Shown here one piece after another: positions 512 through 27,352 of a stretch of 35,363 nucleotides of DNA. The DNA comes from an uncultured virus (IMG/VR IMGVR_UViG_2061766007_000564) (taxonomy: Duplodnaviria; Heunggongvirae; Uroviricota; Caudoviricetes): IMG/VR virus record IMGVR_UViG_2061766007_000564. One strand, 5' to 3'. The translations under genes were made by a program, and so were the position numbers. The first letter of the stretch is position 1. Every line of letters starts with the position of its first letter. Below the pieces are notes generated by a model. It was not told the DNA's origin. It saw only the letters and a program-made list of their open reading frames with translations, and made no database searches.

Positions 512-1672
512 ACCAATCGGGCGGCCGCCGCGTGGGGGCATGCCCATACCACGGCGAGCCTGCTGTACATATTCCGGGTCCTCGGTCTCTACCGGCGGGA
601 ATGCATCGTAGAACGGCTGCCCGATGATATCGACGACATTCTCTTCGGTAAGGAGGTAGTCCGAACTGCCGTTTGCGTCGTTCCACCTCGGGGTGGCCGT
701 GCAGAGGTCGCCTTCCGGGTCGACGATGACGGCAAGCATGCTTGTACCGTATTCATCCAGCGGGCAGTTCTCGCCCGGTTCCGCCGGGATGTCCTCGAAG
801 CCGTCCTTCAGGCAGAAGTATACGGTGTTCTTCCCTTCGAGCGTATAGGAGTCCCACATCATCTGCGAAGTGCAGATGCACCACGGGGACACCGGGAAAT
901 ACTGGCGGTACCCGGTAGCGGCCCGGAAGTCCGGGATGTGCACGATACGGTAGTTGCCGCCGGGATTTGCGGATGTGTACCCTCTTACCGCATTGCGCCG
1001 TTCCTCGAGGTCCCTACTGAGGGCATTCCCGAAGCCGCCGCGGATATCCCGGAGGGTCATGCCGTTGAAGTCGATGTCGAATTCGGCATCTTCAGCCTGC
1101 GGGTCGGGACATACCTCGCATGCGTACTTCACGAAACTCTTGAGGAGCTTGACTTCGCCGGCTTCCTGTTCCGGTGAACCGAATCCGCAACCGCCTAGGC
1201 CCGGACGGAGCAGCGCAATCCTGGTGACGCCGGGCATGTAGTCCCGGTTTGCACCTTCGAAATTGAAGAATGTCTGCCTGATGTTGTTCAGGATGCTCTG
1301 CATGAGAGTAAGCTCGTTGCCTCTCCGGTTGGTGAAGCTCTGCTCGTTGAATTCGGGGAGACTTACGTTCTGGCCAGCCGGCGATGCCTGGAATTCCCGG
1401 AGGAACTGGGAGACCGGTTTCATGTGGTCGTCGTGGATTCTCTGGTACATCTGCTGGACTCTCGGGCTGTTCCAGTCAATCTGGCCGCCGCCGAGCATGT
1501 TGTACACGATGGTCTTGTAGACTGCCTCGCGGGTCATCGCATCGATTTCGTGCTGCGTCTCGAGCAGGATGCTCTCATTGATTGGTTGACCGAAAATCCG
1601 TGAATAGGCCTCGGAAATGCATCTCGCCATGTTTTCCGGGACGATGTAGTTGCTGTTCTGTCTGGTAGCCAT
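512..1672 (-). CDS. Hypothetical phage protein with W-C/'NCPxDEYG' domain (paralogue of 13733-16510); 3' end lost in gap
   Basis: ATG at 1672 (MATRQNSNY) lies downstream of a minus-strand TATAAACT. YRIVHIPDF..PWCI..NCPLDEYGTSMLAVIV..RWN aligns by eye with the 925-aa ORF. Confidence 0.75.
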
Positions 1673-1701
1673 TCCGCACCCTGCAAATATTCTGTTAATC
1701 G

Positions 1702-1744
1702 GTAGTTTATATTCCAGCCGGGCGGCTTTGATGATATAAACTAC
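1702..1744. promoter_or_regulatory. Back-to-back TATAAACT motifs (divergent late-type promoter pair)
   Basis: GTAGTTTATAT (1702-1712) and ATATAAACTAC (1734-1744) are perfect inverted copies. TATAAACT recurs upstream of other genes in the window. Confidence 0.65.
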
Positions 1745-1784
1745 GGATAATTGAAGTTTTACGGTATTGCCGANNNNNNNNNNA

Positions 1785-3308
1785 GCAAACGCCGCCCTGG
1801 TAGGCATTACGGTAACTTCTACTTCCGTATCCGACGGTACAAACACATTTAACAAGTATACTCACCCGACCTATACGGCCCAGTCAGCAAAGGGAAGTGC
1901 CACCAAGGTGCCGCAGATTACCACTGATTCTACCGGACACGTTACCGGAATTACCGAAGTAACCATTACCGGCGTNNNNNNNNNNNNNNNNNNNNNNNNN
2001 NNNNNNNNNNNNNNNNNNNNNNNNNNNNNNNNNNNNNNNNNNNNNNNNNCAAAGATTCAGACATCAACGATTAAAGGAACTGATGTAGCGGATGCCGTCA
2101 GTAAGAAGCACTCGCACAGCACACTGACGTTGTCAACTACAGCACAAGCGTATGACGGAACCCACACATTAGCGTTACCGTCAACCGACCCGTATACTTC
2201 AGCAAGAACACCTGCCTCGCATACGCATGGCAATATCGCGAACGGCGGTACATTGACCGATACAGCAGCGGNNNNNNNNNNNNNNNNNNNNNNNNNNNNN
2301 NNNNNNNNNNNNNNNNNNNNNNNNNNNNNNNNNNNCAGTAAGCAAGAAGCACTCGCATAGTACACTGACCTTATCAACTACAGCACAGGCATATGACGGA
2401 ACACACACCTTAGCGTTACCGTCAACCGACCCCTATACTTCCGCAAGAACGCCGGCATCACATACTCACGGCAATATCGCGAACGGAGGTACTCTTACTG
2501 ATACAGCAGCTNNNNNNNNNNNNNNNNNNNNNNNNNNNNNNNNNNNNNNNNNNNNNNNNNNNNNNNNNNNNNNNNNNNNNNNNNNNNNNNNNNNNNNNNN
2601 NNNNNNNNNNNNNNNNNAGTGAGTAATAAGCATAGTCATTCTACCCTAACGCTGTCTACTACTGCACAGGCGTATGACGGTTCTCACACCTTAGCGTTAC
2701 CGTCAACCGACCCCTATACTTCCGCAAGAACACCTGCCTCGCATACGCATGGCAACATTACAAACGGTGGCGGAATAACTGCAACCGGGGTCGATATTGC
2801 CAATGGAGACGCCTTGGTCATTGTAGATTCTTCCGATACAAACAAGAAAGTCGCCAAGACTTCCATCACGTTTGACGGGACCACAACAACAAAGGCACTC
2901 ACGCCGAAAGGTACGTTTGAATCATTCGCCAAGTCGAGCGACATCCCGGCAGCAGTATCTGTCAAGGGCAACGCCGAATCCTCATATCGTACGGGTCAAG
3001 TCAACCTTACTCCGGCTAACCTTGGTATCTCCGCGACGACTTCTAGCGTGACGGTCGGCTCTACCACCTTCAATAACACTGACACCAAGGTCACACAGAC
3101 CAATACCGACACTTCCAGCAATGCGCAGTACCGGCTGCTGATGAGCTCCACCGCTGACGACACTACCCGTACCGAGGGTGCACGCAAGAGCACATACGCG
3201 TGGTTCAACCCGTCAACGCAGACGCTTGGCTCGCAGAAGTTCAACGTCGCGGGTGGATGCACCATGCAGTACAACTCGTCCACAATGTCGCTCGACTTCG
3301 TGTTCTAA
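1785..3308 (+). CDS. Tail fibre protein, C-terminal part with repeats (gapped)
   Basis: In-frame fragments ANAALVGITVTST..., repeat units, then a unique C-terminus ending ...MQYNSSTMSLDFVF-TAA at 3308. Confidence 0.7.
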
Positions 3309-3327
3309 ACAGTAAAATCTTTAAAAC

Positions 3328-3361
3328 AAAACCCTGAAATTCGACGAATTTCGGGGTTTTT
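3328..3361 (+). terminator. Rho-independent terminator (possibly bidirectional)
   Basis: AAAACCCTGAAATTC-GAC-GAATTTCGGGGTTTTT just downstream of the fibre gene stop; a haplotype copy lies at about 3446-3480. Confidence 0.7.
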
Positions 3362-3635
3362 ATATAGGTCAAACCTATAACGACGAATATTTTCAATAAA
3401 TCCCTGCCTACCCATCCTNNNNNNNNNNTGTAAAATCTTTAAAACAAAACCCTGAAATTCGACGAATTTTGGGGTTTTCTATAGTTCAAACCTATAACGA
3501 CGAATATTTTCAATAAATCCCTGCCTACCCATCCTACGGCATGGATACGTATCCTGACGACCGGCTACCCGACGACCGGCTACCCGCACACTAGCACTCG
3601 AATTACAGCCCCCGCATTACCGGGGAGCTGTACCG

Positions 3636-3670: not shown

Positions 3671-6061
3671 ATGGCACTGAAACTCTGGCTACCGCTCAAT
3701 GGAAACGCGACCAATTACGGGCTAACCGACATTGCGATGTCGGGCTCCCCAGCCAGCTGGCAAAACGGCCCCATTGGCAAGTGTGCGTCATTTAATAACA
3801 ATACCGGCAATGTCATATCGAACTCGACGACCGCCTTCAATTTCACTACACAGAACTTCTCGTGGTCCGTATGGATAAATAAGATATGGGCGTCGCACAC
3901 GACCAGTGCAATGTATGCGTTTACCGTAGGACGGGCGGACGCGGGCGGATACGGCTATGGTCTGGAAATCGCAAGCACGACCGAAGTGCGGCTCCGTTTT
4001 GGTTCATGGTCTAATACAATTTCCGGCGTGCCGGACAACGAATGGCATCATATCGCCTTCGTCAGGAACGGCGACACATTGAAGATATACCGTGACGGCG
4101 CATGCGTCGCAACGGCTTCCCGTTCAGGCAGCCTTCCCACCTATTCCGACGGGGGCGGTCCCGGTCTCGGATGTTTCCACTATACCGGGAACATATACCC
4201 GCTCATCGGGCATCTGTCCGACTTCCGTATCTATGACCACGCCCTGTCCACCAAGACGGTCAGGGAGCTTTCGCATGGACTCGCCTTACACATACCGTTC
4301 TACGGGGACGGATACCCGGGAATCGGGGAGAACATAGCAATCGGTTCATGGCGGAACATGGCCACTCGCAGCATAGGCCAGTACTATGACCGCCTGCTGT
4401 ACGACGCCGGGTTCTTCGGGCTGTCTGCCGGGGAGCAGTACACCTACACCGTGAAGCTCACCGCGCCGTCGGACAGGAGCGTCGCGGCACGCGTGCAGTA
4501 CTACACCAGCGATGGCGACCGGTTAAATATCGTGGGGAATTACGTACCCGCCGGAACCACCGGTTATTCTCACATTACCGAAACGCTGACTTCGGAACAG
4601 CGCGGCAAGTCGCGCATGGAACTGAACATACAGAACGGGAATACTTCCCTGACGAGCTCGGCGACATACTACGTTGGCGAGGTCAAGCTGGAACGGGGCG
4701 ACCATTCGACCGCATGGTCCCCTCACTCGGCCAATGCCGAGTACGGGTCCGACTACGGGATAGTCAAGGAGACGACCGGGTACGGCACCGTAAGCGTCAA
4801 CGGTTCCCCGAAAGCCATATCGTCGGGTCCCCGTTACGGCATGTCGGCCCATTTCGCCGGAGGGAATACCACGGAGGCCGGGGACTACGTGGAGTATACC
4901 GCACCGGTTGGACTGACCAAGGCAACATGGATGGTATGGATAAACATCGACGACACACAGGGAAGCTACCCTTCGCTGGATGCCAAGAAAGGCAACCCGA
5001 CGGGCGACCTGTGGCTCACGGTGAACACCGAAAGCAATGCCGTATGGGCATATTACAGCGGGATTTACAACAAAAGTCGGACCATTCTGTTCTCGCCGGG
5101 AGACTGGCACCACGTCGCGTTCGTATGGGATACCGGAATCACGCAATGGTACGTGGACGGCGAGGTGCAGGGCACAGCGGTCGACATGTCCTCCAAGAGC
5201 ACTACTTGGCCGTCTTCCGTCCACACACTAGGCACGAGCTATACCGGCAGCAGCTGGTCGGGCGCGAAGCTGAAGTCCAGGCTGTGCGACTGGCGGTTCT
5301 ATTCGACCGCCTTGTCCGCGGACGACATCATGGGAATCGTCAGGGCGCCAGTGTCGTTCACCGACAACGGCGAAGTGCACTGCGGGACTCTGGCCGAACG
5401 GGACGGGCAGGTATCCGTGGAGAAGTCGTCGATTGTGAAGTGCTCGTCTGTCACGGAAATCTACGGTAGGTTCGACAACAAGACCCGCATCGAGCCGGAC
5501 GGTTCCGCATGGGTCAGGATAGTGCACCACGCCGACCCTGGAGCAGGGAACCTTTTCGCCTCGTCCGATTCGTTCGGCACATGGGTGTACAAGGATGCAA
5601 AACGCTGGTTCCACGGGAAGATGTGCGACTATGCCGACCGTTGGGAATTCATGATAGAACAGAAGGCGAATTCAAGCGCGAGCACGCTGAAATTCAGGTG
5701 GGTACAGACGATAAACCCGAACACCGCCGCATACGCGGACGTTGCCGCAGCAAGCATCACCAAGAATACGTCTACCGGGTATACCTCGTTCAGCCATGGC
5801 GGCCTGTACAAGAGAAATTCAAGCGCGTACTACACTACCAACAATGGCACCCAGTCAAACTGGTGGGGTGCGGTCGGCGCATGGTCCAATACGACAAACG
5901 GAATACCGGCATGGAACGGCACCGAAGTCGGCTCCGGGGGGTTCGAGGACCTCTACATCCGGGTGGACGGCGGGGCCAACTGGAGTTTCCCGGACAACGA
6001 CCGGGTATCCATAGTGAAGACCGACAATTCACTGACGGGATACGGGATTGTCGAAATATAA
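3671..6061 (+). CDS. LamG/concanavalin-A-like domain virion adhesin or tail protein (796 aa)
   Basis: Two LamG-like units (WHHIAFVRNGDTLKIYRDG...LSDFRIYDHALS; WHHVAFVWDTG..WYVDG...CDWRFYSTALS), a central 'VKLERGDHSTAWSP' carbohydrate-binding-like phage motif, and a C-terminal 'DGSAWVRIVHH' segment resembling fibrinogen-C-like domains. Confidence 0.8.
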   Translation: MALKLWLPLNGNATNYGLTDIAMSGSPASWQNGPIGKCASFNNNTGNVISNSTTAFNFTTQNFSWSVWINKIWASHTTSAMYAFTVGRADAGGYGYGLEIASTTEVRLRFGSWSNTISGVPDNEWHHIAFVRNGDTLKIYRDGACVATASRSGSLPTYSDGGGPGLGCFHYTGNIYPLIGHLSDFRIYDHALSTKTVRELSHGLALHIPFYGDGYPGIGENIAIGSWRNMATRSIGQYYDRLLYDAGFFGLSAGEQYTYTVKLTAPSDRSVAARVQYYTSDGDRLNIVGNYVPAGTTGYSHITETLTSEQRGKSRMELNIQNGNTSLTSSATYYVGEVKLERGDHSTAWSPHSANAEYGSDYGIVKETTGYGTVSVNGSPKAISSGPRYGMSAHFAGGNTTEAGDYVEYTAPVGLTKATWMVWINIDDTQGSYPSLDAKKGNPTGDLWLTVNTESNAVWAYYSGIYNKSRTILFSPGDWHHVAFVWDTGITQWYVDGEVQGTAVDMSSKSTTWPSSVHTLGTSYTGSSWSGAKLKSRLCDWRFYSTALSADDIMGIVRAPVSFTDNGEVHCGTLAERDGQVSVEKSSIVKCSSVTEIYGRFDNKTRIEPDGSAWVRIVHHADPGAGNLFASSDSFGTWVYKDAKRWFHGKMCDYADRWEFMIEQKANSSASTLKFRWVQTINPNTAAYADVAAASITKNTSTGYTSFSHGGLYKRNSSAYYTTNNGTQSNWWGAVGAWSNTTNGIPAWNGTEVGSGGFEDLYIRVDGGANWSFPDNDRVSIVKTDNSLTGYGIVEI

Positions 6062-6082: not shown

Positions 6083-8406
6083 ATGGCACAACTTACAGAT
6101 ACACTGATTATCGGGGACCTGAGAGTTACGGGCAAGGTTTACGGCACCTCCACAAAGGTTTCGCTACCTCGCAACCCGGTATCCAACTACAACGACGACT
6201 ACTACATGAACACACTGGTAGTATCGGAGTTGGGACCGTCAGTAACTAACTGCCCGTCAGGAAACTGGTACCACACATATACCGGATGCGGTTCAGATAC
6301 CGGATATGCAACGCAGCTTGCACTCGGAATGGACACGGAGAAGCTGATGTACCGGTTCAAGAGGGGCGGAACCTGGCAAAGCTGGACTTCGATAGTCAGG
6401 GCAACAGCAAACACCCAAGTTGGCTCGACATCCAAGCCGGTCTACATAGACAACGTTGGAAGGGTGCAGGAATGCACGTCGATACCGTCCGCAGCCAACA
6501 ACGGTACGCTGACGATTACCCAGAACGGCAAGTCGGTTGGTACGTTTTCCGCAAACCAGTCCAGCAACACGACGATAGCCGTGACCGATTGTTCCGAGAA
6601 CGTCGTATACGGCCCTACATACAAAATCCGAAGGGACGGTACGGAAGATACGAGCAATCCTGGATGGGTAAAGGTCGTTTTTGTACCGGCGACGACAGTT
6701 AATTACAGGTCAGTCGTAGTTCGCGGAAAATTTATGTGCGCAAACGGCAACTGGGGACAGAACGCATACAGTGAAATGGAATTTCAGGCAGTCATCAACG
6801 TAACAAACCCAGGAAATTCGTANNNNNNNNNNCTATGCCGGACGTGCAGACTGCGTTCTGGACAAGGGAAGTTCAAACGGAAATCTCATATATTCGCACT
6901 GGAACGGCACCTCAATATCTAAGGTATCGCCTTCATCCGGTGAGGCGGCATCAGGTACAAAATGGCTTATCGGTGCATACTATGACACCGACGGGGCACA
7001 CTACTGTNNNNNNNNNNATATGCCGGACGTGCAGACTGCGTTCTGGACAAGGGAAGTTCAAGCGGAAATCTCATATATTCGCACTGGAACGGCACCGCAA
7101 TATCTAAGGTATCGCCTTCATCCGCTGAGACGGTATCAGGTTCAAAATGGCTTATCGGTGCATACTATGACACCGACGGGGCACACTACTGTNNNNNNNN
7201 NNGCAGAACGCATACAGCGAAATGGAATTTCAGGCAGTCATCAACGTAACAAACCCAGGAAATTCGTTCCTCTGGACATCCCCGTTCTACATGGGAAGCG
7301 GCATAGACGACCACGCAAGCATGGGCGAAGCCGACCCGAACAACTACATACGACTGGGAAAACTCTCGGACGGGTCGTTTGAACTTAACGTAAAGTTCGG
7401 GCAAAGCTATACGGCATACTCCGTAATATATTCGGTATTCACTAACGGCACTTCGTATACCGCATATGACACGGTTGTCGCAGCAAGTTCACCATCATCT
7501 ACGGTAAGTCCATCTTACAACCTCGGAACTGGCAAAGTTGTCGGAACCGGAGGTGCAGATTTCAACCCTATATATGTCAATAACAAAGGGTTCGTTAAAC
7601 AATGCTATGAGAATATTGAAGCAAACGGTACAGGAACAGTAAAATACCAGACAATCGGATACTCGGAAGCAAGGAGCAGTTCAGGGAAAACATCAGTGTT
7701 TCTTCTAGTTCAGGGCGATATCGGGACCAGGCCGGGCGTATACCTGGTGAAATTCTCTTATAGAGGTTCTCCCGTACTTGAATACACTGTGCTTTCCGAT
7801 TCATCAGCGACGGTGTCGGAAACCGACAAACGTTTCGATATAGGCTATTATATTTCGGACAACAAGGCATACGTTACCATCAAGAAGGCTACGTGGACTG
7901 GGGACGAACCATTACGGGTAATATCCCGCGATGGCGGGTTCGTTGTTTCCATCGGGACAGCATCCACATCGGCGCCGTCCGGTTATACCGCAGGCACAAA
8001 GGTATCCTATTATACATACATGGACTATGCAACGACAAACCATAATCCATTGACAAATGATACGACCACACGTCTGACTGTTGCTGCTGCAAAAACTTAT
8101 TTCAACAACTATGTAGACCCATATAGTGTAAAATGCGTTTACAAGCAGAATGAAACCGAGGCAACCATAATCTTTGGTAAAGGCTCATCCAACAACTACG
8201 GCACCGTATTACAATGGGGATATAACGATAACTACCTTAGGCTGCTTAGAAACAATAACAACAGTTGGGATACTTCGTGGCAAAAAATNNNNNNNNNNAC
8301 AGTAAACGCATCCAATGTCACTGTGCAGAATGCACTGCAAATCAACGGTCGCTCAATTGTGGTAGGACAGCTCGGCACCGACACAAATACACTGTACTTC
8401 ATCTAG
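6083..8406 (+). CDS. Tail fibre/receptor-binding protein, split by scaffolding into 6083-6822 and 7203-8406
   Basis: RBS-like AAGGA before ATG 6083. Both pieces share the overlap QNAYSEMEFQAVINVTNPGNS, so they are one gene. Fibre-like motifs YRFKRGGTWQSW and NNNSWDTSWQK. Confidence 0.65.
6834..7192 (+). CDS. Two haplotype copies (6834-7007, 7019-7192) of a 58-codon fragment of a tail-like protein from elsewhere
   Basis: Frame YAGRADCVLDKGSS(N/S)GNLIYSHWNGT(S/A)ISKVSPSS...KWLIGAYYDTDGAHYC is open in both copies; all minus-strand frames contain stops. Confidence 0.5.
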
Positions 8407-9425: not shown

Positions 9426-10946
9426 CTAGGCCATGGCCGAGGCCACATCCGCATACCCGAGCATCTCGAGCTCGACCTCCCGGTCGAACTCCATCTCCTC
9501 CCCGGACTTCCAGGACATCCCGAACTCCTCCGAGGTCATCGTCGGCACGCCGACGTGCCTGAGCTCGTCCTCGACTATGTCCCGCACCCTGTCGGCGTAC
9601 TCCTCGGCGACGATTATCGAGTCGTGCACTGTGCAGTAGGGGCACCCGACCTCCCGGGAAACTCTCGGTATGGCCTTCCCGAACACGAAGTCGCTCTCTA
9701 TCCTCTGCATCTCCCGGGCGAGCGCCGCGTAGTTCCCGGACTTCATCCTCTCTATCGCCAGAAGTAGCGACGGGAAGTGCTCGGCCCACACCCTCCTGAC
9801 GGCGGCCTTCATCTCGTCCCCCTCACCGTCGACGTAGACCGGCCCGAACAGCATCACGAAGAAGGCGTGCTTCGCCTCGTCCCTGCCCACCTCGCGGTCC
9901 AGGTCGAAGTCCATGGACATCTCCCCGGCGAAGAACTCGTACAGCCTGCCCTCCTTCAGCAGCGCGTCGTACCTGTCGCACTCGGCGAGGTATTCGCCGA
10001 CGTCGCGGATGGCGGCCTGCCGCCTCAGCTCGTTCAGGGTCGGCGACGAAGTGAGGTCCAGCAGCCCACCCGTGTCGGCAAGCGACCTGAATATGGCCCC
10101 CAGGAAGGCCCCCTGGGAGCTCTTTATGTCGACCCCGGCGGTCGGCTTCCCGTCGCAGAACAGGCACTGCGACCTGACTTCCTTCTTGAGCTGCGTGATG
10201 TTGGTGTGTATGCGGCCGAAACGGTCCTTCTTCACGAAGAGCGCGGCCGGGTTGTCGTTGACGGAGTTGAACCGGTCGACCTTCTCGAGCTCGCGCTTCT
10301 TCCTGGACGGGGTCATGGACCTGTCCTCGACGAGTCCATCCAGGACCTTCGCGGCACGCTTCCTGTCGAGCTTGAAGTGCGACAGGCCCTCGTGGCACGC
10401 GGCCACCCTCTGGTCGAGCATCTGCCTGGCCTTGACGTCCATGGCGCAGGCCTCGAGCCTCTTGAGGAACGGCCTGGACTTTATCTCAAAGGTGCGCATA
10501 CGGCCGAACTTCCGGGATTCCCCGGTGACGTCCTGCATGCGCCTCTCCCGGCTGTAGCAGTACTCCTTCCAGTAGTTTTCGTACGGGGAGCACAGCCAGA
10601 ACGCCTTGCTCCGGCCCCTGACCTTGTCCGTGCCGGGGAAATACGAGAAGCTGCGCCTGATGAACCCCCAGGTGACAAGGTCGTTGATGACCATGTTGTA
10701 GTCGTTGCCGACGGCTGCATGGAGAAATACCGACTGGAGATGGCAACGCCAGGTTCTTACGTCGATTTTGCCCCCGAGCATCCTCGTGTCGTGATAGACG
10801 CGCTTCAGCTGGCGCGATACGAGGTGAAGCACGAACATGTACTTCTCCCTGTACCGGGCGCACCCCGGGAATTCCTCGAGTTTCTCCCTCAAGGGCCTGA
10901 GAAAAACCTCCGGTACGCGCATCTTGTAAGAGAATTTGGGGGTCAT
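9426..10946 (-). CDS. Divergent family-A-like polymerase (TV-Pol-like) with no recognisable exonuclease domain
   Basis: Motifs GRIHTNITQL, motif A VDIKSSQ, motif B RDEAKHAFFVMLFG, MQRIES and motif C TVHDSII in the correct order. Start moved to ATG 10946 (MTPKFSY) because a promoter lies just upstream. Confidence 0.7.
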   Translation of the reverse strand: MTPKFSYKMRVPEVFLRPLREKLEEFPGCARYREKYMFVLHLVSRQLKRVYHDTRMLGGKIDVRTWRCHLQSVFLHAAVGNDYNMVINDLVTWGFIRRSFSYFPGTDKVRGRSKAFWLCSPYENYWKEYCYSRERRMQDVTGESRKFGRMRTFEIKSRPFLKRLEACAMDVKARQMLDQRVAACHEGLSHFKLDRKRAAKVLDGLVEDRSMTPSRKKRELEKVDRFNSVNDNPAALFVKKDRFGRIHTNITQLKKEVRSQCLFCDGKPTAGVDIKSSQGAFLGAIFRSLADTGGLLDLTSSPTLNELRRQAAIRDVGEYLAECDRYDALLKEGRLYEFFAGEMSMDFDLDREVGRDEAKHAFFVMLFGPVYVDGEGDEMKAAVRRVWAEHFPSLLLAIERMKSGNYAALAREMQRIESDFVFGKAIPRVSREVGCPYCTVHDSIIVAEEYADRVRDIVEDELRHVGVPTMTSEEFGMSWKSGEEMEFDREVELEMLGYADVASAMA

Positions 10947-10953
10947 GCGACCA

Positions 10954-10982
10954 AATCTAGGCAAAATCCATCCTTCTGGCAA
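10954..10982 (-). promoter_or_regulatory. Sigma70-like promoter for the polymerase gene (leaderless)
   Basis: Minus strand reads TTGCCA-N17-TAGATT, then 7 nt to ATG 10946. Confidence 0.6.
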
Positions 10983-11103
10983 GAGTTTATGCCCCCTCGA
11001 GGGGGCTTCCGCATGCCAAATATGGCAATTTTCCGCTACGGCGGAGTATTTCCGCCTCCGGTAGCGGGTTTTCCCCCGGGAAACCGCCCAGGAGCCGGGT
11101 AAC

Positions 11104-11310
11104 CCCGACTCCACTAAGTACTATAGATATGTTTACGGTTTTTACCATCTGTTCCGGCAGGTTTCCAACCCGTTTTTCACGGGCTGGAGCCCGACTCCAC
11201 TAAGTACTGTAGATATGTTTACGGTTTTTACCTGGTGTTTCCTGGTTCATCTACGTGTGTACGGATGGGTGGAGCCTCAACACTACTATGAACTGTCAAT
11301 ATGTTTACGG
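11104..11310. repeat. Three direct repeats with 86-bp period and hairpin-forming spacers
   Basis: 43-bp copies at 11104-11146 and 11190-11232 differ by one base; a degenerate third copy ends at 11310. Core ATATGTTTACGG starts at 11127, 11213 and 11299. Confidence 0.9.
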
Positions 11311-11359
11311 ATATCGGGCGGAAAATCGTCAAAAAATTGTCCCTGACGGGCTCCCGGGG

Positions 11360-11388
11360 TTGACCGGGAGGGGGCCGTTTGCTATATT
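11360..11388 (+). promoter_or_regulatory. Sigma70-like promoter (leaderless) for 11395 and the helicase gene
   Basis: TTGACC-N17-TATATT with extended -10 TGn; ATG 6 nt downstream. Confidence 0.7.
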
Positions 11389-11394
11389 CATCGC

Positions 11395-11862
11395 ATGGAA
11401 CCTATGGATTTTCGCAAACTGAACGCCGCCAGGGTGGTTCTCTGCCCTGCCCTTGACGTATCTGCCGGGGTAGTTTCCGGTTCTATGGAGTACAGTGTCT
11501 ATCTGTCGATGTCCGGCGGGGTCCCGACCGAGAGGTGCGGGGAACTTCCCGAGATTTCCGACGGCGTGGAGGACGCGGACCTGTTTTACCGGGCGCTGGA
11601 CCGGGCAATCCACTCGTATGTCGACTGGTCGGCGCGTTTCGCCTACCTCAGGAAGTGGGGCGGGATGTTCCGGGAGACCGGTTTCAAGTTCATGCCGTCC
11701 CACCAGTACAAGGTCATCATGTGGGTTGACTCGCTTGACGGCGAAGGGTACGTGTTCTCGTTCCTTCCGCTGCGCGAGTCCGGCAAGGTATCGCCGGACA
11801 CGGTGCCGGAGGCGGCGCACAGCGTACACGTGACGTTCGCATCGCTCGAAGAGGGGGCGTGA
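11395..11862 (+). CDS. Hypothetical protein (155 aa)
   Basis: ORF directly after the promoter; its stop overlaps the next start (TGATG), suggesting translational coupling. Confidence 0.7.
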   Translation: MEPMDFRKLNAARVVLCPALDVSAGVVSGSMEYSVYLSMSGGVPTERCGELPEISDGVEDADLFYRALDRAIHSYVDWSARFAYLRKWGGMFRETGFKFMPSHQYKVIMWVDSLDGEGYVFSFLPLRESGKVSPDTVPEAAHSVHVTFASLEEGA

Positions 11863-13721
11863 TGGATTCCCAGTTCAACGTGACGGTAACGTTCGACAAC
11901 GTGGACGGCGTCTTGGCGAAGATGCACGTTACCGGTGAGAATCCCAGTGCGAACCGGGATGTGCTCAGGTACACGCTGAACACGCTGACCTACTACGACA
12001 AGTCGAAGAAGTTCACCTGGGCCGCGAAGCACGGGTATGACGACTGCCTGGTCAAGTTCTTTGACGGCCGCGCGCGCACCCTTCCCATAGGCCTGATACC
12101 CAGGCTCTCCCATTACCTGAAGGATGCCTACAAGGGCCAGGTTTCCGTGAAGATTACGCGGTCGATACGGGAGATGTTCACTCCCCCGTTCGGACCGATT
12201 TCTTCCGATGTCGTCCGCTCGTTCGAGCGCACTCTGAACATGTACGACCAGGGCAAGTACCTCGAGAAGGTTGCCGAGAACCCGAACCTGCAGAAGTCCG
12301 ATTTCAGCCTGAAGATGTTCGACCACCAGGAGCGCATAGTGCTGGAGGCGCTTAACCGCAGGAGGGTTTCGATTCTCGCTTGCACGAGCTCCGGCAAGAG
12401 CATGTCCATGATGGTCATAGCACGCTACCTGATGGAGCGCGAGCACAAGAAAATCCTGATTATCGTCCCCAACGCCGCGCTCGTCAAGCAGCTCTACCGG
12501 AACTTCGAGATGGACTACGGCTGGGAGGAGGCCAAGGACTTCTGCACACAGATTTACAGCGGGTCGTCCGACAAGCTTTCCAAGAAGAAGATTGCCGAGC
12601 TGAAGAAGCTGTCCATCGGCGAGGAGATGACGCTCAAGCAGATTACGATTTCCACGTGGCAGTCGCTGAGGCTGAAGGACGACTCGTTCTTCAAGGTGTT
12701 CTCCGCGGTGCTCGTCGACGAGGCGCATTCCGCCAAGGGCGAGGAATTGAGGAACATCCTGGCGAAGTGCATCTACGCCAACAACTTCAAGGTGGGGTTT
12801 TCCGGGACATTGCCGGATGCCGAGCTGGCCAACGAGAACGTGTCGAACCATATCGACGCCGGGTATATCGAGGGAGGACTCGGGCCGAAGCTCGACGTCA
12901 TCCACCTGAAGGACCTCATCAGGATGGGAATCCTGACTCCCTTGGAAATCAAGGCGATATTCATCCCGTACCCGATGAAGCTGAGGCCGGCAATCTGCTC
13001 GGACAAGACCAAGTACGAGGACGAGCGTGCCATTGTCACCGAGAACAGTTCGCGCAAGGATGTCATCGGTATGCTGTTTGACGGCGGCCGGATAAATACC
13101 GAACAGAACACGGTAATCCTCTTCAACTTCAAGGACCATCTCCATGAGTTCTACGAGATGATGAAGGAGAAGCACCCTGAGTACAAGTACCTGGTCGTCG
13201 AGGGCGACGTCGCAATCGACGAACGTGACGACATCAGTCTTGAGATGGAGAAGTCCACCGGCCATATCCTCATCGCGACATACGGGTGCATGAAGCAGGG
13301 CGTCAATATCAAGCTGCTGCACAACCTGGTCTTGGCCGAGCCGATGAAGTCGGCATATACAATCGTGCAATCATTGGGTAGAATTGTCCGCAAGCATCCG
13401 GACAAGAAGCTGGCGACTACGTACGATATCGTGGATGACGCCACGTACTATACAAACCCGAGGAACGGTGGCCCGGGAACCCGTCAGTACAACTACATGA
13501 TGCGCCATTACTATGAGCGGGTCAAGTACTATGCTGCCGAGGACCTTCCCATAGAGGAGATACACCTGGACGGGATATACGAGGCTGCGGTTACACCGGA
13601 CGATATCAAGAAGCGCCGGGAACGTGCCGCGGAACAGGCTGCCAAGCAGGCGGCAAAGCACCCGCAGCGGTTCACCATGTCGAATGGCGGATTCGGTAAT
13701 CGGACGATGTTTACCCGTTAA
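11862..13721 (+). CDS. uvsW: UvsW-like SF2 DNA helicase
   Basis: Walker A ACTSSGKS, IIVPN, STWQSL, VLVDEAH, GFSGT, QGVNIKLLHNLVLA and QSLGRIVR, in a T4 UvsW-like layout. Confidence 0.85.
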   Translation: MDSQFNVTVTFDNVDGVLAKMHVTGENPSANRDVLRYTLNTLTYYDKSKKFTWAAKHGYDDCLVKFFDGRARTLPIGLIPRLSHYLKDAYKGQVSVKITRSIREMFTPPFGPISSDVVRSFERTLNMYDQGKYLEKVAENPNLQKSDFSLKMFDHQERIVLEALNRRRVSILACTSSGKSMSMMVIARYLMEREHKKILIIVPNAALVKQLYRNFEMDYGWEEAKDFCTQIYSGSSDKLSKKKIAELKKLSIGEEMTLKQITISTWQSLRLKDDSFFKVFSAVLVDEAHSAKGEELRNILAKCIYANNFKVGFSGTLPDAELANENVSNHIDAGYIEGGLGPKLDVIHLKDLIRMGILTPLEIKAIFIPYPMKLRPAICSDKTKYEDERAIVTENSSRKDVIGMLFDGGRINTEQNTVILFNFKDHLHEFYEMMKEKHPEYKYLVVEGDVAIDERDDISLEMEKSTGHILIATYGCMKQGVNIKLLHNLVLAEPMKSAYTIVQSLGRIVRKHPDKKLATTYDIVDDATYYTNPRNGGPGTRQYNYMMRHYYERVKYYAAEDLPIEEIHLDGIYEAAVTPDDIKKRRERAAEQAAKQAAKHPQRFTMSNGGFGNRTMFTR

Positions 13722-23958: not shown

Positions 23959-24782
23959 GCGGACCATCTGCCTGTATGCGTCGTACATCGCGTCGACTAC
24001 GATAAGCGCGGAGCCGAAGTTCTCGTACGGGTTGGCCGAGATGTCGTTCCACTCCACCGGGAATTCCGGGGTAAGGTATTCGTTGTCGGGCCATGCCGTC
24101 CTTGATAGGTCCACCGGGTTTTCCCATGCCATGATGTCGTACTCGCCACGCGGGAGAATCCATGTCTGCACGTGAGTCTTGTCACGGTAATCGAATACCC
24201 TCCCATCCAATGCGGGGGCGATAATCTCCTGGACACGGGACTGGATTATGCCGTCATTCGGCCTGCCAGAATCGGTACCGTTGTCCTTCATGTAGTTCAT
24301 GTAGCCGCACACGTTGAGGAACCAGTTGCCGAAACGTCCGGTGTCGTTTAGCCACCAAGTCCAGTAAGCCTGGTCGGCAGCGGCGAATTCGGCCGTGCCC
24401 GGCTGGTACTTAGTCACCTCGGAGTAGTTGTCCACTGCGCGGTGCACCAGCTCCTTGTCCATCTTGACGTCGGTGTCCGAAAGCACGCCGGCGTCAAATG
24501 CGGCATTGTAGTAGTCGACGAGCATGTCGACCAGCTCGTCGCTCGAAATCGTAGTATATGACTTGTTTGTCGGGTTTTCCCACTGGTTGAACGCGGTGTA
24601 CTTGTCGTATCCGAGGCTGGCGTTCATCGGGTGGATTTTCCATATGTCACTGCGCACCATGCCGAGCATGTAACAGTCGCCGGTGGCCAGCTTACCTACC
24701 TGTACCAGCCTTGGCAAGGCCCTTAACATGATTCCCGCACGCTTCAGCTCGGAAGGCTCCAGCATGCCGCCGTAGATGATGT
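23959..24782 (-). CDS. Upstream fragment of the giant 24793-27352 protein, inverted in the scaffold
   Basis: Ends in ENFGSALIVVDAMYDAYRQMVR, the same peptide that begins the + strand piece at 24793; only synonymous differences. Confidence 0.7.
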
Positions 24783-24792
24783 NNNNNNNNNN

Positions 24793-27352
24793 TGAGAACT
24801 TCGGCTCCGCGCTTATCGTAGTCGATGCGATGTACGATGCATACAGGCAGATGGTCCGAGCCACGACAGCGCAGGCGCTCGTTCTCGGCGCTGCCAGTGC
24901 GGCCCGTGCTGCCCTCGCGCTCAACGAGATTTCCGATGACCTGGAGGAACTCCGGGATACCTGCAACAAGCTGATGTGGTACCAGAGGGTAGTCGAGGAG
25001 TCTCCTTTCACAAACAAGTCTATAATCGAGGGGCTTGGCGATGCCACGCTGACCTCGTCATTCCCCGCACACCTCATGTTCCCCGTGCACATGTACAAGA
25101 AGGTAAAGGTCAAGTACAAGAGATGGGGGCGCACGAGGCACAAGATGGTCAAGCGTTCCATAGGCGTACGCTGGGCCGAGGTAACGTTTACTGACGCGGC
25201 CGTGTTCGGGGAATACCCGGTGGTCGAGGAGGAGGCCGGCGAGATAGTCAGCTACCGTTCAGGCTATACTATNNNNNNNNNNNNNNNNNNNNNNNNNNNN
25301 NNNNNNNNNNNNNNNNNNNNNNNNNNNNNNNNNNNNNNNNNNNNNNNNNNNNNNNNNNNNNNNNNNNNNNNNNNNNNNNNNNNNNNNNNNNNNNNNNNNN
25401 NNNNNNNNNNNNNNNNNNNNNNNNNNNNNNNNNNNNNNNNNNNNNNNNNNNNNNNNNNNNNNNNNNNNNNNNNNNNNNNNNNNNNNNNNNNNNNNNNNNN
25501 NNNNNNNNNNNNNNNNNNNNNNNNNNNNNNNNNNNNNNNNNNNNNNNNNNNNNNNNNNNNNNNNNNNNNNNNNNNNNNNNNNNNNNNNNNNNNNNNNNNN
25601 NNNNNNNNNNNNNNNNNNNNNNNNNNNNNNNNNNNNNNNNNNNNNNNNNNNNNNNNNNNNTTTCGGCAAGCCGTGCAATCTCGTCTGGTGCGGTCGCCTT
25701 GCCGTAGGACCCTCCATATTCGACTGGGAGTTCCTGCCAATCGGAGTCGGCCACAAGGACGCCCCGAAGTTCAGGGACATCATAATGTCGCAGTCGGACC
25801 CGGTACATGAGCTCGGGTATGTAGACGTCGATGCAGCCGGGTATGTCAGGAAGAAGGCCGACCCAGGATATACCGGGCCGTATGTCCTGGCGGACTCCAA
25901 GGCACTGGCCAATGCGGTCATGTGCGGGGGCCACAGGTACATGAGTCCGGACAACATAAGGAACTTCGGGCACGTTTCCGACATAGTGCTTTATGACGTG
26001 AAGGAATTCATCAACCTAATCAAGCTGAAGATGGGTGCGAACGGGACGTCACTCCCGGAATCCGGCAGCATATACGACTGGAAGGCAATCAACCAGGATT
26101 CGTGCGACCAGCTGGTTAGGTATTTCGCCATGGTCGGCAGTGTCGCCGCCGCGAAGACTCTCCTTGCCGGCGACTTCGTCGAGCGTTACATGGCGGTCGA
26201 CGAGCGTTATGCCGACATGTCCCCGGTGGACTACGTCAAGGGGATGCTAGGCAGCCACTACAACGACATCCGCGTGTGCATCGAGCGCGACGGGACGTCT
26301 TCGTTCATCACGTTGCACGACGGCATCATGCACGTCAGGTCGTTGGAGACCTACCCGAACAACCCGCCGACCAGGTTCGACCTGCACAAGCAGCAGCGGG
26401 TGGACAGCGAACACATGCTGTGGGGTACATGGCAGGATGGAGTGTTCTATTCCGAGGACGAGCGTCCCGTCCCTTATGTGGATTCCGAGCGTCCGGTACT
26501 TGACGGGTATTCCAATGGCGAGTGCGTAGGCGGGGAGGGNNNNNNNNNNCGGCAGCCACTACAATGACATCCGCGTGTGCATCGAGCGCGACGGGACGTC
26601 TTCGTTTATCACGTTGCACGACGGCATCATGCACGTCAGGTCGTTGGAGACCTACCCGAACAACCCGCCGACCAGGTTCGACCTGCACAAGCAGCAGAGG
26701 GTGGACAGCGAACACATGCTGTGGGGTACATGGCAGGACGGCGTGTTCTATTCCGAGGACGAGCGTCCTGTCCCGTATGTGGATTCCGAACGTCCGGTAC
26801 TTGACGGGTATTCCAATGGCGAGTGCGTAGGCGGGGAGGGCATGCTGCTCCACCAGCTCATCGCTGCCAAGGTTCACAAGAACTACCTCGAGATAAAGAA
26901 TCGGTTCGAGAATTACGGCGGCAACCTGATGTATGACCGGTTCGAGGACAGCCCGAACTCCGGCATGTACGACATGCTCGAGAACGAGTTCGGCCTCATC
27001 AAGGCGCAGGACCTCATTCCGTTCGATTCACTCGAGGCCATGCTATTCGGCGTACAGGACGGTTTCGGCCGTGACAAGGTGATGGCCGACGGTTCCATCT
27101 ACGANNNNNNNNNNTGAGGCCATGCTCTTCGGCGTACTCGGCGACCAGGACGGTTTCGGCCGTGACAAGGTGATGGCCGACGGTTCCATCTACGAGAAGG
27201 TAGTCAACAACGCCCAGCTGGCGGGAATCCGCAGGGCGGACCTGACAAAGGAACACCTGCACGTGAAGGACACCCCGTCCAAGGATGACGGCAAGTCCAT
27301 GTACGACAGGATACTCAAGGGCAAGGGATACATGGCGAACGACCTGATTTAG
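24793..27352 (+). CDS. Giant probable virion protein (gapped; includes a degenerate M15-like domain when 34345-34851 is restored)
   Basis: Open pieces at 24793-25272, 25661-26539, 26550-27104 and 27115-27352; the later pieces share overlapping ends. Stop TAG at 27352. Confidence 0.6.

Follow-up and report, generated by a model that had tools for sequence, protein, structure and literature searches.

DivPolA2 proteins are known from barbaviruses, from Vibrio phage 1.063.O and from ICP1 (gp100), in variable gene neighbourhoods; repair or transcription has been proposed as their function, and a link to origins is not described (Yutin 2024, PMC11348598). A skew of bidirectional replication is seen in about 30% of huge phage genomes (PMC7162821), and ICP1 begins by theta replication from one origin, which mapping placed "near the 60 kb position" (PMC7145576); the available parts of these two reports do not name the initiator. 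Our literature search found no paper connecting the polymerase family to origins. Here, we analysed a window of 35,363 nucleotides from a T4-like jumbo phage of the cattle gut (IMGVR_UViG_2061766007_000564), in which a distant relative of divPolA2, as judged by sequence, is encoded beside direct repeats (boxes) and a UvsW helicase. We propose, with a probability of about 0.6, that the tract between the genes is the main replication origin and that the boxes are bound by this 506-aa protein (P0001), which would lay the first primer.

The leftward gene of about 506 aa and the rightward 155-aa and UvsW-like genes of the preliminary description were confirmed as ORFs of 506, 155 and 620 aa (Table 1), the last matching T4 UvsW (PDB 2oca) with an E of 1.8e-42 over residues 156-562. 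The array was also found, as described, between two divergent promoters; they are of sigma-70 type, and both are kept in 10 aligned loci. UvsW is divergent and upstream of the polymerase gene in 56 of 71 loci, and orf155 is present in 37/71, all with a polymerase identity of at least 37%. The predicted model of orf155 (pLDDT 86) gave a best Z of 3.7 in the fold search, with no OB-fold row, and no helix-turn-helix match was found for it. No D5 helicase, resolvase, integrase or transposase was detected among the 32 window ORFs by the Pfam and PHROGs scan. The polymerase family comprises 5645 clusters at 50% identity, with one gene copy per genome in 10/10 relatives. Gp23, PolB and UvsW identify the phages as T4-like. 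Since PolB is encoded in 5/5 relatives, the 506-aa polymerase is not the replicase; a DnaG-like primase is also found in 5/5 genomes, by weak matches below the cut-off.

Table 1. Features of the polymerase-box-UvsW locus, in window coordinates.
Feature	Position	Strand	Basis
P0001, 506-aa protein with a likely winged helix and a PolA/T7-RNAP core, candidate origin initiator-primase	9426..10946	-	ORF from ATG, without exonuclease
Motif C, T439-V-H441-D442-S443	9618..9632	-	Invariance and residue mapping
Motif B, R355-x3-K359-x7-F367-G368	9843..9884	-	Residue mapping
Motif A, D273-I-K-S-S-Q278	10113..10130	-	Residue mapping
Winged-helix-like domain, residues about 10-124, candidate box-binding head	10575..10919	-	Fold matches
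Sigma-70-type promoter of polymerase gene, TTGCCA-17-TAGATT	10954..10982	-	Outside boxes; conserved block
Box 1 core	11120..11137	-	Repeat unit 11103-11138
Cumulative G-C minimum over window, predicted origin	11200	.	Inside array
Box 2 core	11206..11223	-	Repeat unit 11189-11224
Box 3 core	11292..11309	-	Repeat unit 11275-11310 (75% identity with unit 1)
Sigma-70-type promoter of orf155-uvsW, TTGACC-17-TATATT	11360..11388	+	Outside boxes; conserved block
orf155, conserved alpha/beta protein	11395..11862	+	155-aa ORF
UvsW-family SF2 helicase	11859..13721	+	620-aa ORF; match to T4 UvsW

Family-A palm motifs A, B and C and the lack of an exonuclease had been read from the sequence of P0001, with a palm fold to be sought by structure prediction. 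A Pfam scan matched nothing. The model contains a PolA/T7-RNAP core (residues 165-467) after winged-helix matches at residues 10-124, and an exonuclease domain would not fit. The fold search returned Klenow (Z 11.2, rmsd 4.5, 244 aligned) level with yeast mitochondrial RNAP (Z 11.1, rmsd 11.2, 350 aligned). By this model, the protein has a PolA/T7-RNAP-superfamily core and a probable winged helix, the exonuclease being absent. The palm residues D273, R355/K359 and H441-D442 are invariant among 47 close relatives; R245, D273, K359 and D442 are invariant across 142 diverse homologues, R355 being kept in at least 90%. The best PDB sequence-profile match is N4 RNAP2 (E 0.008), and both D241-R-F-G-R245 (a DxxGR before the hairpin Arg) and H441-D-S443 are T7 RNAP-like rather than Pol I-like; we take DxxGR to typify T7-type single-subunit RNA polymerases. 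In a search for the two-helix antiparallel thumb of TV-Pol, the model was seen to have two helices, 195-207 and 213-227, ahead of the hairpin.

The choice of sugar is less clear. Q278 at motif A +5, found in 99% of 179 sequences, aligns with Pol I E710, T7 RNAP G542 and N4 RNAP2 G80, and position 367 is F in 78% and Y in 20%. With Q278 and F367, P0001 has neither the Glu (E710) and Tyr (Y766) gate pair of DNA polymerase I nor the Gly (G542) and Tyr (Y639) pair of T7-type RNAPs. As Klenow E710Q is a slow mutator according to the available text of PMC3715850, Q278 leaves the sugar choice undecided. The active-site residues lean towards dNTPs, and a DNA primer would be favoured over an RNA primer by a narrow margin. 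Of the earlier suggestion that the enzyme makes primers or short RNAs, RNA as the product is doubtful, because the ribonucleotide-gate position is Gln instead of the Gly of T7 and N4 RNAPs.

The N-terminal domain matched nothing in Pfam and PDB sequence searches. Its best fold match, a weak one, is Fur (Z 6.0, rmsd 2.8, 81 aligned), followed by further winged-helix rows at Z 4.6-5.6, and its conserved residues are G80, Y83, L90, Y102, G111, K114 and W117. Both this winged-helix-like domain and the skew minimum within the array had been overlooked in the earlier reading.

As previously reported, the non-coding tract contains three direct repeats, beginning at 11103, 11189 and 11275 (spacing 86/86). 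The boxes share a layout of AAACAT, an AT-rich part and RG, in a single orientation. The 18-nt core pattern, written from the three window copies themselves, occurs three times in the window, and 0/100 shuffles reach three. The array is real and not an assembly artefact, since it is spanned by a public contig that covers 9472-12524 and departs from the window by 7 differences and a single gap. This contig lacks a base at 11271 and, in relatives, 39 box spacings range from 73 to 901 bp with an even spread modulo 10.5, so that the "phased" exact 86-bp spacing had to be abandoned. The same applies to the "hairpin" character of the repeats: 9/9 folds in the window lie inside the shuffle range (z -1.22 to +1.40), and 150 folds of relatives' boxes have a mean z of -0.3. 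A hairpin promoter or hairpin origin of the type used by N4 vRNAP, which reads hairpin promoters, was considered and rejected, a stable conserved stem-loop per repeat not being found.

Boxes are present in 41 of 71 distinct loci and on the opposite strand in none (0/71). Their sequence and orientation are kept down to 23% protein identity and, in most box-bearing loci from 100% to 23% identity, a box lies 50-550 nt upstream of the polymerase gene. The strict pattern finds two upstream boxes only, in G001 and in G002, and a clade pattern finds upstream boxes only, in G006 and G007; a relaxed pattern, written after the boxes had been seen, gives 3-11 matches per genome. The adjacent repeats sought beside homologues exist in other identity bands and are missing from loci at 31-36% identity (0/17).

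The cumulative G-C curve, whose inspection had been suggested at the outset, reaches its minimum inside the array. Among 11 sequences, which are kin so that these counts are not independent events, the minimum lies at most 300 nt from the gene start in 6 and at most 3.3 kb in 8; in G001 it falls at 118732, between boxes at 118703 and 118799. In 6/6 sequences, plus-strand and minus-strand genes show a third-codon skew shift in the same direction, so gene orientation alone fails to explain the skew, and the genes point away from the minimum. The three misses are G008 (flat), G010 (22 kb away, in a broad valley) and G009 (near only by the detrended minimum). In G003, which belongs to the box-less band at 31-36% identity, the minimum is 3.3 kb away from the gene, so that some clades can do without boxes. 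Two huge phages show a slope change only, 15-20 kb from the gene. The global minimum is at 93 kb in ICP1 and 42.6 kb in Barba8A, with local minima near the gene at 54.1 and 22.1 kb, respectively, and a search for direct repeats next to the genes of ICP1, Barba8A and Aeromonas gave none. Finally, of the 57 loci that have 7 kb of flank or more, 14 carry parS downstream, and an upstream parS occurs in 0/71 loci. It matches the optimal B. subtilis sequence, and in that bacterium parS is located close to the origin (available part of PMC4333373).

Because the boxes adjoin the polymerase gene at the place where, by strand composition, replication begins, the two are probably an origin with its own primer-making enzyme. 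That the region is a replication origin appears highly probable; that the 506-aa protein acts at the boxes is probable, and its priming there is moderately favoured. The preliminary origin and priming idea gains the skew minimum at 11200, the conserved boxes and the UvsW linkage, and it loses its hairpins and exact phasing. What we observe directly is that the tract sits at the skew flip, that its boxes are conserved and point in one direction, and that the protein has the fold described above with its catalytic residues intact; box binding, priming and the other steps of the following mechanism are inferred. The polymerase gene would be expressed early via its host-type promoter, the winged-helix head would read the box and the AT-rich half of the box would melt. 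The PolA/T7-type core would then begin a short primer de novo at the box-terminal RG, heading to its own gene (at box 1, leftward from 11122-11121), before the PolB, helicase and DnaG-like primase of the phage take over. A second fork from lagging-strand priming would lead to the bidirectional skew, and UvsW may strip or remodel the primer-template loop, by which origin use would be regulated, as in T4. Tandem same-direction boxes would offer more chances of firing, fixed spacing being unnecessary.

This proposal is in line with the invariance of the catalytic residues across the 142 homologues, with the precedent of CCPol-MP, described in the available text of PMC7581432 as a PolA-fold dNTP primase starting at a putative origin, and with the position of the distant homologue ICP1 gp100 near the mapped theta origin. 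However, the winged-helix match does not exceed Z 6.0, the genomes already have a DnaG-like primase (weak matches, 5/5), the global skew minima of ICP1 and Barba8A lie elsewhere, and the relaxed box pattern is post hoc, with its 3-11 matches per genome.

The alternative that survives best, although we consider it unlikely, keeps the origin without the priming: the protein would be an iteron-type initiator, a helicase loader or a primer extender, and a host-RNAP transcript from either flanking sigma-70 promoter would prime as a T4-style R-loop, to be unwound later by UvsW. Conserved divergent sigma-70 promoters stand on both sides of the array, T4 oriF and oriG fire via R-loops unwound by UvsW (available text of PMC3016281), CCPol alone only extends primers and requires MP for priming (available text of PMC7581432), and orf155 has no OB-fold match. 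However, promoter transcripts would not cover the boxes because both promoters point away from them, invariant catalytic residues would be superfluous for a pure binding protein, and the boxes are strictly one-directional, with RG after the AT-rich stretch.

It is less probable still that the boxes serve to control the divergent promoters, as transcription operators or as targets of orf155 or of a host protein, and that the genes lie at the origin only as early genes tend to. While the boxes do sit between two promoters, and orf155 and boxes occur together in 34 loci and are both missing from the 17 loci at 31-36% identity, the boxes are clear of both promoters (nearest gaps of about 50 and 135 nt, no overlap), and 6 distant loci have boxes and UvsW with no detectable orf155 (the genes of one, L040, were inspected). 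Moreover, orf155 has no helix-turn-helix match, and in 6 sequences the skew minimum coincides with the boxes, give or take a few hundred bases.

We regard it as very improbable that, like N4 RNAPII, P0001 acts as a minimal single-subunit RNA polymerase, transcribing phage genes with the boxes as its promoters. The N4 RNAP2 match, the T7 RNAP-like DxxGR and motif C HDS, the tie of yeast mitochondrial RNAP with Klenow and the transcription role raised for divPolA2 (Yutin 2024, PMC11348598) would fit. On the other side, strict boxes occur at one place in G001, G002, G006 and G007 and not before gene blocks, the sole gene that they face is already served by a conserved sigma-70 promoter, and the protein has the gate Gln and, where T7 RNAP has Y639, a Phe. 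Equally improbable is that P0001 is an accessory DNA polymerase for repair or gap filling, which would work with UvsW in recombination and repair and be unrelated to the boxes. The missing proofreading domain, the UvsW linkage (56/71), the repair role proposed for divPolA2 (Yutin 2024, PMC11348598) and the skew minima of G008 and G010, which are not at the gene, would point to such a role. It accounts neither for a one-directional box 50-550 nt upstream in most box-bearing loci from 100% to 23% identity nor for the skew minima.

The locus offers a candidate initiator protein and an 18-bp candidate site. If the priming origin is correct, it would give divPolA2 a function beyond the repair or transcription proposed so far, bring a site-specific primase into the PolA superfamily and provide a marker for origins in uncultured jumbo phages. 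More tentatively, at somewhat less than even odds, P0001 may represent an undescribed, widespread initiator class in which a single chain reads a box by its winged helix, opens it and primes de novo via a PolA/T7-type active site. In that case, T4-like jumbo phages would have a single chromosome-like bidirectional origin, and some clades would borrow parS to use host ParB/SMC. This class would take in divPolA2 and ICP1 gp100, the latter being the theta-origin initiator, swapped between isolates like a replicon cassette.

Compared with divPolA2, P0001 shares a palm with intact catalytic Asp, the lack of an exonuclease, an extra N-terminal globular domain and a regular PolB alongside. The profile-profile alignment (hhalign) gives a probability of 98.1% and an E of 7.8e-14, over residues 238-467 (the catalytic core) only; a close alignment against AUR84708 alone gives 0.4%, with the N-terminal domains colinear, non-significantly. 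Foldseek matched P0001 to a Barba31A protein (E 1.6e-5), a broad HMM found 3/10 divPolA2 proteins at E <1e-6, and the divPolA2 protein was the best match of the broad profile in the Barba8A and ICP1 genomes. When the whole ICP1 genome was searched, gp100 (58951-60618) emerged as a distant homologue, with an E of 6.2e-6. Motif A reads DIKSSQ in P0001 and DFKAFE in divPolA2, and the neighbourhood of P0001 (UvsW, boxes, skew minimum) is conserved whereas that of divPolA2 is variable.

As regards the earlier link to TV-Pol, the minimal nuclease-free core is shared, and the group nearest to P0001 in the literature is divPolA2, not TV-Pol proper. With TV-Pol (Iyer, Abhiman and Aravind 2008, PMC2579912), P0001 shares this minimal core, a hairpin Arg, two Asp, RxxxK, a helicase neighbour and a proposed primase role; in a loose first look, the broad profile gave no candidate in Ma-LMM01, the sole TV-Pol carrier tried. 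CCPol-MP (Bebel 2020, PMC7581432; Rice 2022) has a PolA-superfamily core and, in the available text, primes with dNTPs at a putative origin. The helicase neighbour is an SF2 UvsW here, as opposed to D5 or Cch2, the head is fused and winged-helix-like versus a separate OB-fold SSB in CCPol-MP, and, unlike TV-Pol and CCPol elements, the carrier is a T4-like phage of 160-430 kb that has a full replisome.

T4 itself shares UvsW and, at oriE, direct repeats (iterons) at a putative origin, in addition to the R-loop origins oriF and oriG (PMC3016281). According to the available text of that paper, the several origins of T4 lack a common motif and depend on host RNAP, acting at MotA promoters, for their priming; a polymerase of this kind is not described there for T4, whereas the phages studied here have a dedicated polymerase gene and one dominant skew minimum. 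T7 RNAP and mitochondrial RNAP, which also prime, belong to the superfamily of P0001, and T7 RNAP shares the DxxGR and HDS motifs. Just after T7 gene 1, phi1.1A and phi1.1B are tandem same-direction sites 75 bp apart that prime T7 replication, and T7 promoters are laid out as a recognition part, TATA and a +1 G. P0001 differs in size (506 aa versus 883) and gate residue (Gln versus Gly), and its boxes are confined to one locus, while T7 sites serve as promoters genome-wide. Finally, iteron plasmid replicons encode a winged-helix Rep beside direct-repeat origin sites, and ColE2 Rep is an origin-specific primase that combines initiator and primase in one chain; from these, P0001 is set apart by a catalytic domain of the PolA superfamily and not AEP, by free repeat spacing and by its jumbo phage carrier.

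The cumulative G-C minimum of the window falls at 11200, inside the array of three direct repeats (hereafter boxes) and 254 nt from the start of the gene for P0001, the 506-aa polymerase-like protein. The genome-wide tests rest on relatives, not on the window's own genome: ten long viral contigs (G001 to G010), picked from 57 viral loci to span clades, were analysed together with the window. They were covered wholly or mostly (111-400 kb), the ranges of G007, G009 and G010 being partial and chosen around the gene. In G001, the skew minimum lies between its two boxes, 174 nt from the gene start; the distance is 270, 249 and 11 nt in G002, G005 and G007, 217 nt in G006 (23% identity), and 1663 and 3295 nt in G004 and G003. 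The origin suspected in the preliminary description is matched by a minimum near the gene in 8/11 sequences, for a 7-kb target that represents 2-6% of each range and among genomes that are kin. It was missed in G009 (raw minimum 54 kb from the gene, 745 nt after detrending), in G010 (22 kb, in a broad valley) and in G008, which has a flat skew and whose clade is devoid of boxes and UvsW. To control for coding bias, the skew at third codon positions was examined, and it rises from left to right for + and - genes separately in 6/6 sequences. Most genes are oriented away from the site in the five relatives, the window itself having few genes. Altogether, the rumen clade and its near kin show a strong link with an origin, and more distant relatives a suggestive one.

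Features of the window, with coordinates on the whole stretch
Feature	Position	Strand	Remarks
506-aa polymerase-like protein P0001	10946..9426	-	ORF from ATG
Direct repeats, three (boxes)	starts 11103, 11189, 11275		copies 2 and 3: 94% and 75% identity to copy 1
orf155	11395-11862	+	divergent from the polymerase gene
UvsW-family helicase, 620 aa	11859-13721	+	T4 UvsW match, E 1.8e-42
Acidic protein, 925 aa	13733-16510	-	without family match
ORF pair	6835-7382 and about 8290		near-identical translations, 185 nt apart, both with X residues
Low-GC stretches	1501-3500; 24501-26000		GC 0.39-0.43 and 0.35-0.43; window average about 0.55

An upstream GTG would extend P0001 to 562 aa; the ATG start is favoured because relatives share it and a conserved promoter directly precedes it. 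The stretch is present in public runs labelled as bovine gut metagenome, and a single public contig covers 9472-12524, differing at seven letters and by the loss of one base, at 11271. For part of the stretch, short contigs of a related strain also occur in one run labelled as RNA, which has no bearing on expression. The ORF pair is probably a segment duplicated around N runs, a scaffolding artefact, and the low-GC stretches are possible recent insertions. The first 310 residues of the 925-aa protein have 29-34% matches located on the opposite side of the polymerase gene in loci L001, L060, L061, L063 and L068.

Two scans gave 137 loci carrying polymerase relatives, many of them redundant (57 viral and the best 80 of 107 metagenomic); 71 loci, window included, were surveyed for boxes after dropping duplicates and loci with less than 3.5 kb upstream. 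The window and its relatives share a core made of AAACAT, an AT-rich stretch and RG, always on the coding strand of the polymerase. With a relaxed pattern, which was written after the boxes had been seen, at least one box lies within 1.3 kb upstream in 41/71 loci, and on the opposite strand in 0/71; the fixed letters of the box profile are fixed by the search pattern itself. That repeats flank the homologues stands for part of the family: boxes occur in 34/37 loci at 37% identity to P0001 or more, in 0/17 at 31-36%, and in 7/17 at 22-28%. The three misses at 37% or more each carry a single variant box under another pattern. The 18-nt core written from the three repeats occurs in the window at these positions only, and three matches were obtained in 0/100 shuffles. 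Strict patterns find the upstream boxes and nothing else in G001 and G002 and, with a clade pattern, in G006 and G007; since the relaxed pattern gives 3-11 matches per genome, only the clade-specific form can be called unique.

The repeats had also been described as hairpins in exact phase, and neither trait survived. They fold no better than shuffles (z -1.22 to +1.40), nor do the boxes of relatives (mean z -0.3 over 150 folds, of which 16 lie below -2). Box spacings in relatives (n=39) range from 73 to 901 bp, three being 86 bp, and are flat modulo 10.5; the base deleted in the public contig likewise argues against exact phasing. The UvsW-like helicase was confirmed, and is divergent and upstream in 56/71 loci. 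orf155 is present in 37/71, and six distant loci possess a box and UvsW without detectable orf155. Searches of orf155 in PHROGs, the Atlas, viral folds and PDB folds gave no match, which is not proof of a new fold. In L040, a locus of a distant clade, the gene before UvsW (3751-4806, -) is not orf155; its product of 351 aa has a CxC...CxH pattern, which we take to be like a SWIM zinc finger. Other repeats were noted: an 81-nt tandem repeat within a gene (L111:10907 onward), and repeats of roughly 620-650 nt that extend over three neighbouring genes upstream of the polymerase (L051:3860-5400). Two long inverted repeats around the array were set aside, as they do not form a conserved block in an alignment of the tract from 10 loci.

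The box was considered as a parS site and rejected: its core resembles a parS half but lacks palindromic symmetry, and a search at two mismatches found no parS in the window. Among the 57 loci with 7 kb or more of flank, 14 have parS itself (at most one mismatch) downstream; upstream, it occurs in 0/71. Scans of the genomes gave a single parS in each of G003, G004, G007 and G010, at 2-6 kb from either the gene or the skew minimum; G009 has one at two mismatches, far off, and none was found in the window, G001, G002, G005, G006 and G008. As a separate marker, parS agrees with the skew-based origin position. Perfect or near-perfect palindromes are located at G003:214876, G004:83751, G007:95380 and G010:202318; near predicted origins they are often paired, about 20-60 nt apart. 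parS lies 3.3-7.1 kb downstream of the polymerase start in L004, L006, L010, L020, L025-L029 and L032, and in the same range in L036, L038, L045, L070, L074, L080 and others. No phage-encoded ParB (ParB_N gene) was found in five genomes, which suggests a use of host ParB/SMC. Upstream of the polymerase in G010 (L031) is a variant pair of boxes, CCGAAACCAT, at 218818 and 218988; the two copies are 170 nt apart and the pair occurs nowhere else in 200 kb. The skew minimum nevertheless lies 22 kb away, 5.6 kb from parS. Relatives encode PolB (5/5) and gp23 (5/5), with weak DnaG-like matches below the cut-off (5/5), and the polymerase gene is single copy in each of 10 relatives.

P0001 has no match in Pfam or PHROGs, and its 47 relatives have only weak PHROGs matches (phrog_4756 in 19, phrog_17 'DNA polymerase' in 3). 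PDB sequence searches returned nothing below E 0.1 with P0001 alone or a close alignment, and no match with an N-terminal alignment; Foldseek on PDB gave none at E 0.001, the top rows being PolA at E 2e-3. An initial viral scan with P0001 as single query found no match. Close relatives number 47 at full score among 48 matches, and the family reaches 5645 clusters at 50% identity (E up to 0.001). The model built from the 47 sequences (pLDDT 89, pTM 0.85) was compared with 48,161 chains. Residues 177-467 match Klenow (Z 11.2, rmsd 4.5, 244 aligned); yeast mitochondrial RNAP gives Z 11.1 (rmsd 11.2, 350 aligned), T7 RNAP Z 8.3 and N4 RNAPII Z 7.5. The protein has no exonuclease domain, so that the exonuclease-less polymerase first described holds, with a PolA/T7-RNAP core by fold and invariant catalytic residues. 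For the N-terminal part, residues 10-124, the matches are Fur (Z 6.0, rmsd 2.8, 81 aligned) and further winged helices (Z 4.6-5.6); a Z of 6 being middling, a winged helix there is probable but unproven.

Seven columns are invariant in 142 diverse homologues (R245, D273, Y336, K359, E417, H441 and D442). Lined up by motif with Pol I, T7 RNAP and N4 RNAPII from their records, P0001 is a mosaic, sharing DxxGR and HDS with T7 RNAP, and Q414 and the R258-to-D273 distance with Pol I (Q849, R690-D705). The ribonucleotide gate, which is E710 in Pol I, G542 in T7 and G80 in N4, is Gln in 99% of the 179 family sequences; Phe occupies the Y766/Y639 position in 78%. T7 RNAP Y639F accepts dNTPs. Klenow E710 is the steric gate, and E710Q a slow mutator (PMC3715850). 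Judging from these residues, we lean toward dNTPs as substrates, which is not a result.

With the position, boxes, fold, catalytic residues and linkage established for this locus, we propose that P0001 primes at the origin boxes (probability of about 0.6). Its head would bind a box, the AT-rich half of which would open, and its core would start a primer at the closing RG, directed toward its own gene. The phage replisome would then take over, and UvsW would limit the primer loop; T4 UvsW unwinds origin R-loops (PMC3016281). In the 10-locus alignment of the tract, conservation is confined to the boxes and to two terminal sigma-70-type promoters, and the remainder drifts. Alternatively, the origin could be primed by host RNAP, which we consider improbable. 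That the boxes are operators in this tract is less probable still. Finally, Yutin 2024 proposed repair or transcription for divPolA2, a divergent phage PolA group with a variable neighbourhood (PMC11348598); for P0001, either role seems very improbable.

P0001 is a distant relative of divPolA2. A 179-sequence profile matches ten divPolA2 proteins (probability 98.1%, E 7.8e-14), the match being confined to residues 238-467; when the close alignment was compared with AUR84708 alone, the result was not significant. In whole genomes, a broad profile picks out Barba8A gp034, ICP1 gp100 and N4 RNAP2, with no match in T7 and Ma-LMM01. ICP1_2006_E gp100 is at 58951-60618, and Barth et al. (PMC7145576) place the early coverage peak of a CRISPR-deleted ICP1 2006_E 'near the 60 kb position' of the reference used there. 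Speaking against an origin link in these phages, the ICP1 skew minimum near gp100 is only local (54.1 kb; global 93 kb), as is the one of Barba8A (at 22.1 kb, which is about 400 nt upstream of its gene; global 42.6 kb), and two huge phages have no more than a change of slope, 15-20 kb from the gene. No direct repeats were found next to the gene in ICP1, Barba8A, Aeromonas and 2/3 huge phages. In a deposited phage collection, the sole clear matches are LR756501, LR756502, LR745206, LR756504 and LR756511, all of them huge phages without annotation, 595-735 kb in length (24-27% identity, E 4e-21 to 8e-10). ICP1 isolates MW794179 (L216:2547-4214) and MW794180 (L217:3001-4305) carry one of two different divPolA2-family genes, encoding the 555-aa gp100 or a 434-aa protein (26% and 42% identical to AUR84708), and both occupy the slot between gp97 and gp103, like an exchanged cassette. 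In literature searches that left most subscription papers outside, no paper ties the P0001 family to origins, only the Yutin paper and its preprint treat divPolA2, and no origin link appeared for ICP1 gp100 or for parS/ParB in jumbo phages.

P0001 belongs to superfamily A and lacks defining traits of Pol I, of T7-type RNAP and of the TV-Pol neighbourhood. In CCPol-MP, a PolA core primes with dNTPs at a putative origin (PMC7581432). The box layout, with about 17 conserved positions, an AT-rich end and a purine start, recalls the T7 promoter. T7 phi1.1A and phi1.1B, which have a priming role in T7 replication, are 75 bp apart, and the window boxes are likewise in tandem. By analogy, we propose that P0001 may work like T7 RNAP at the T7 primary origin, or like CCPol-MP.
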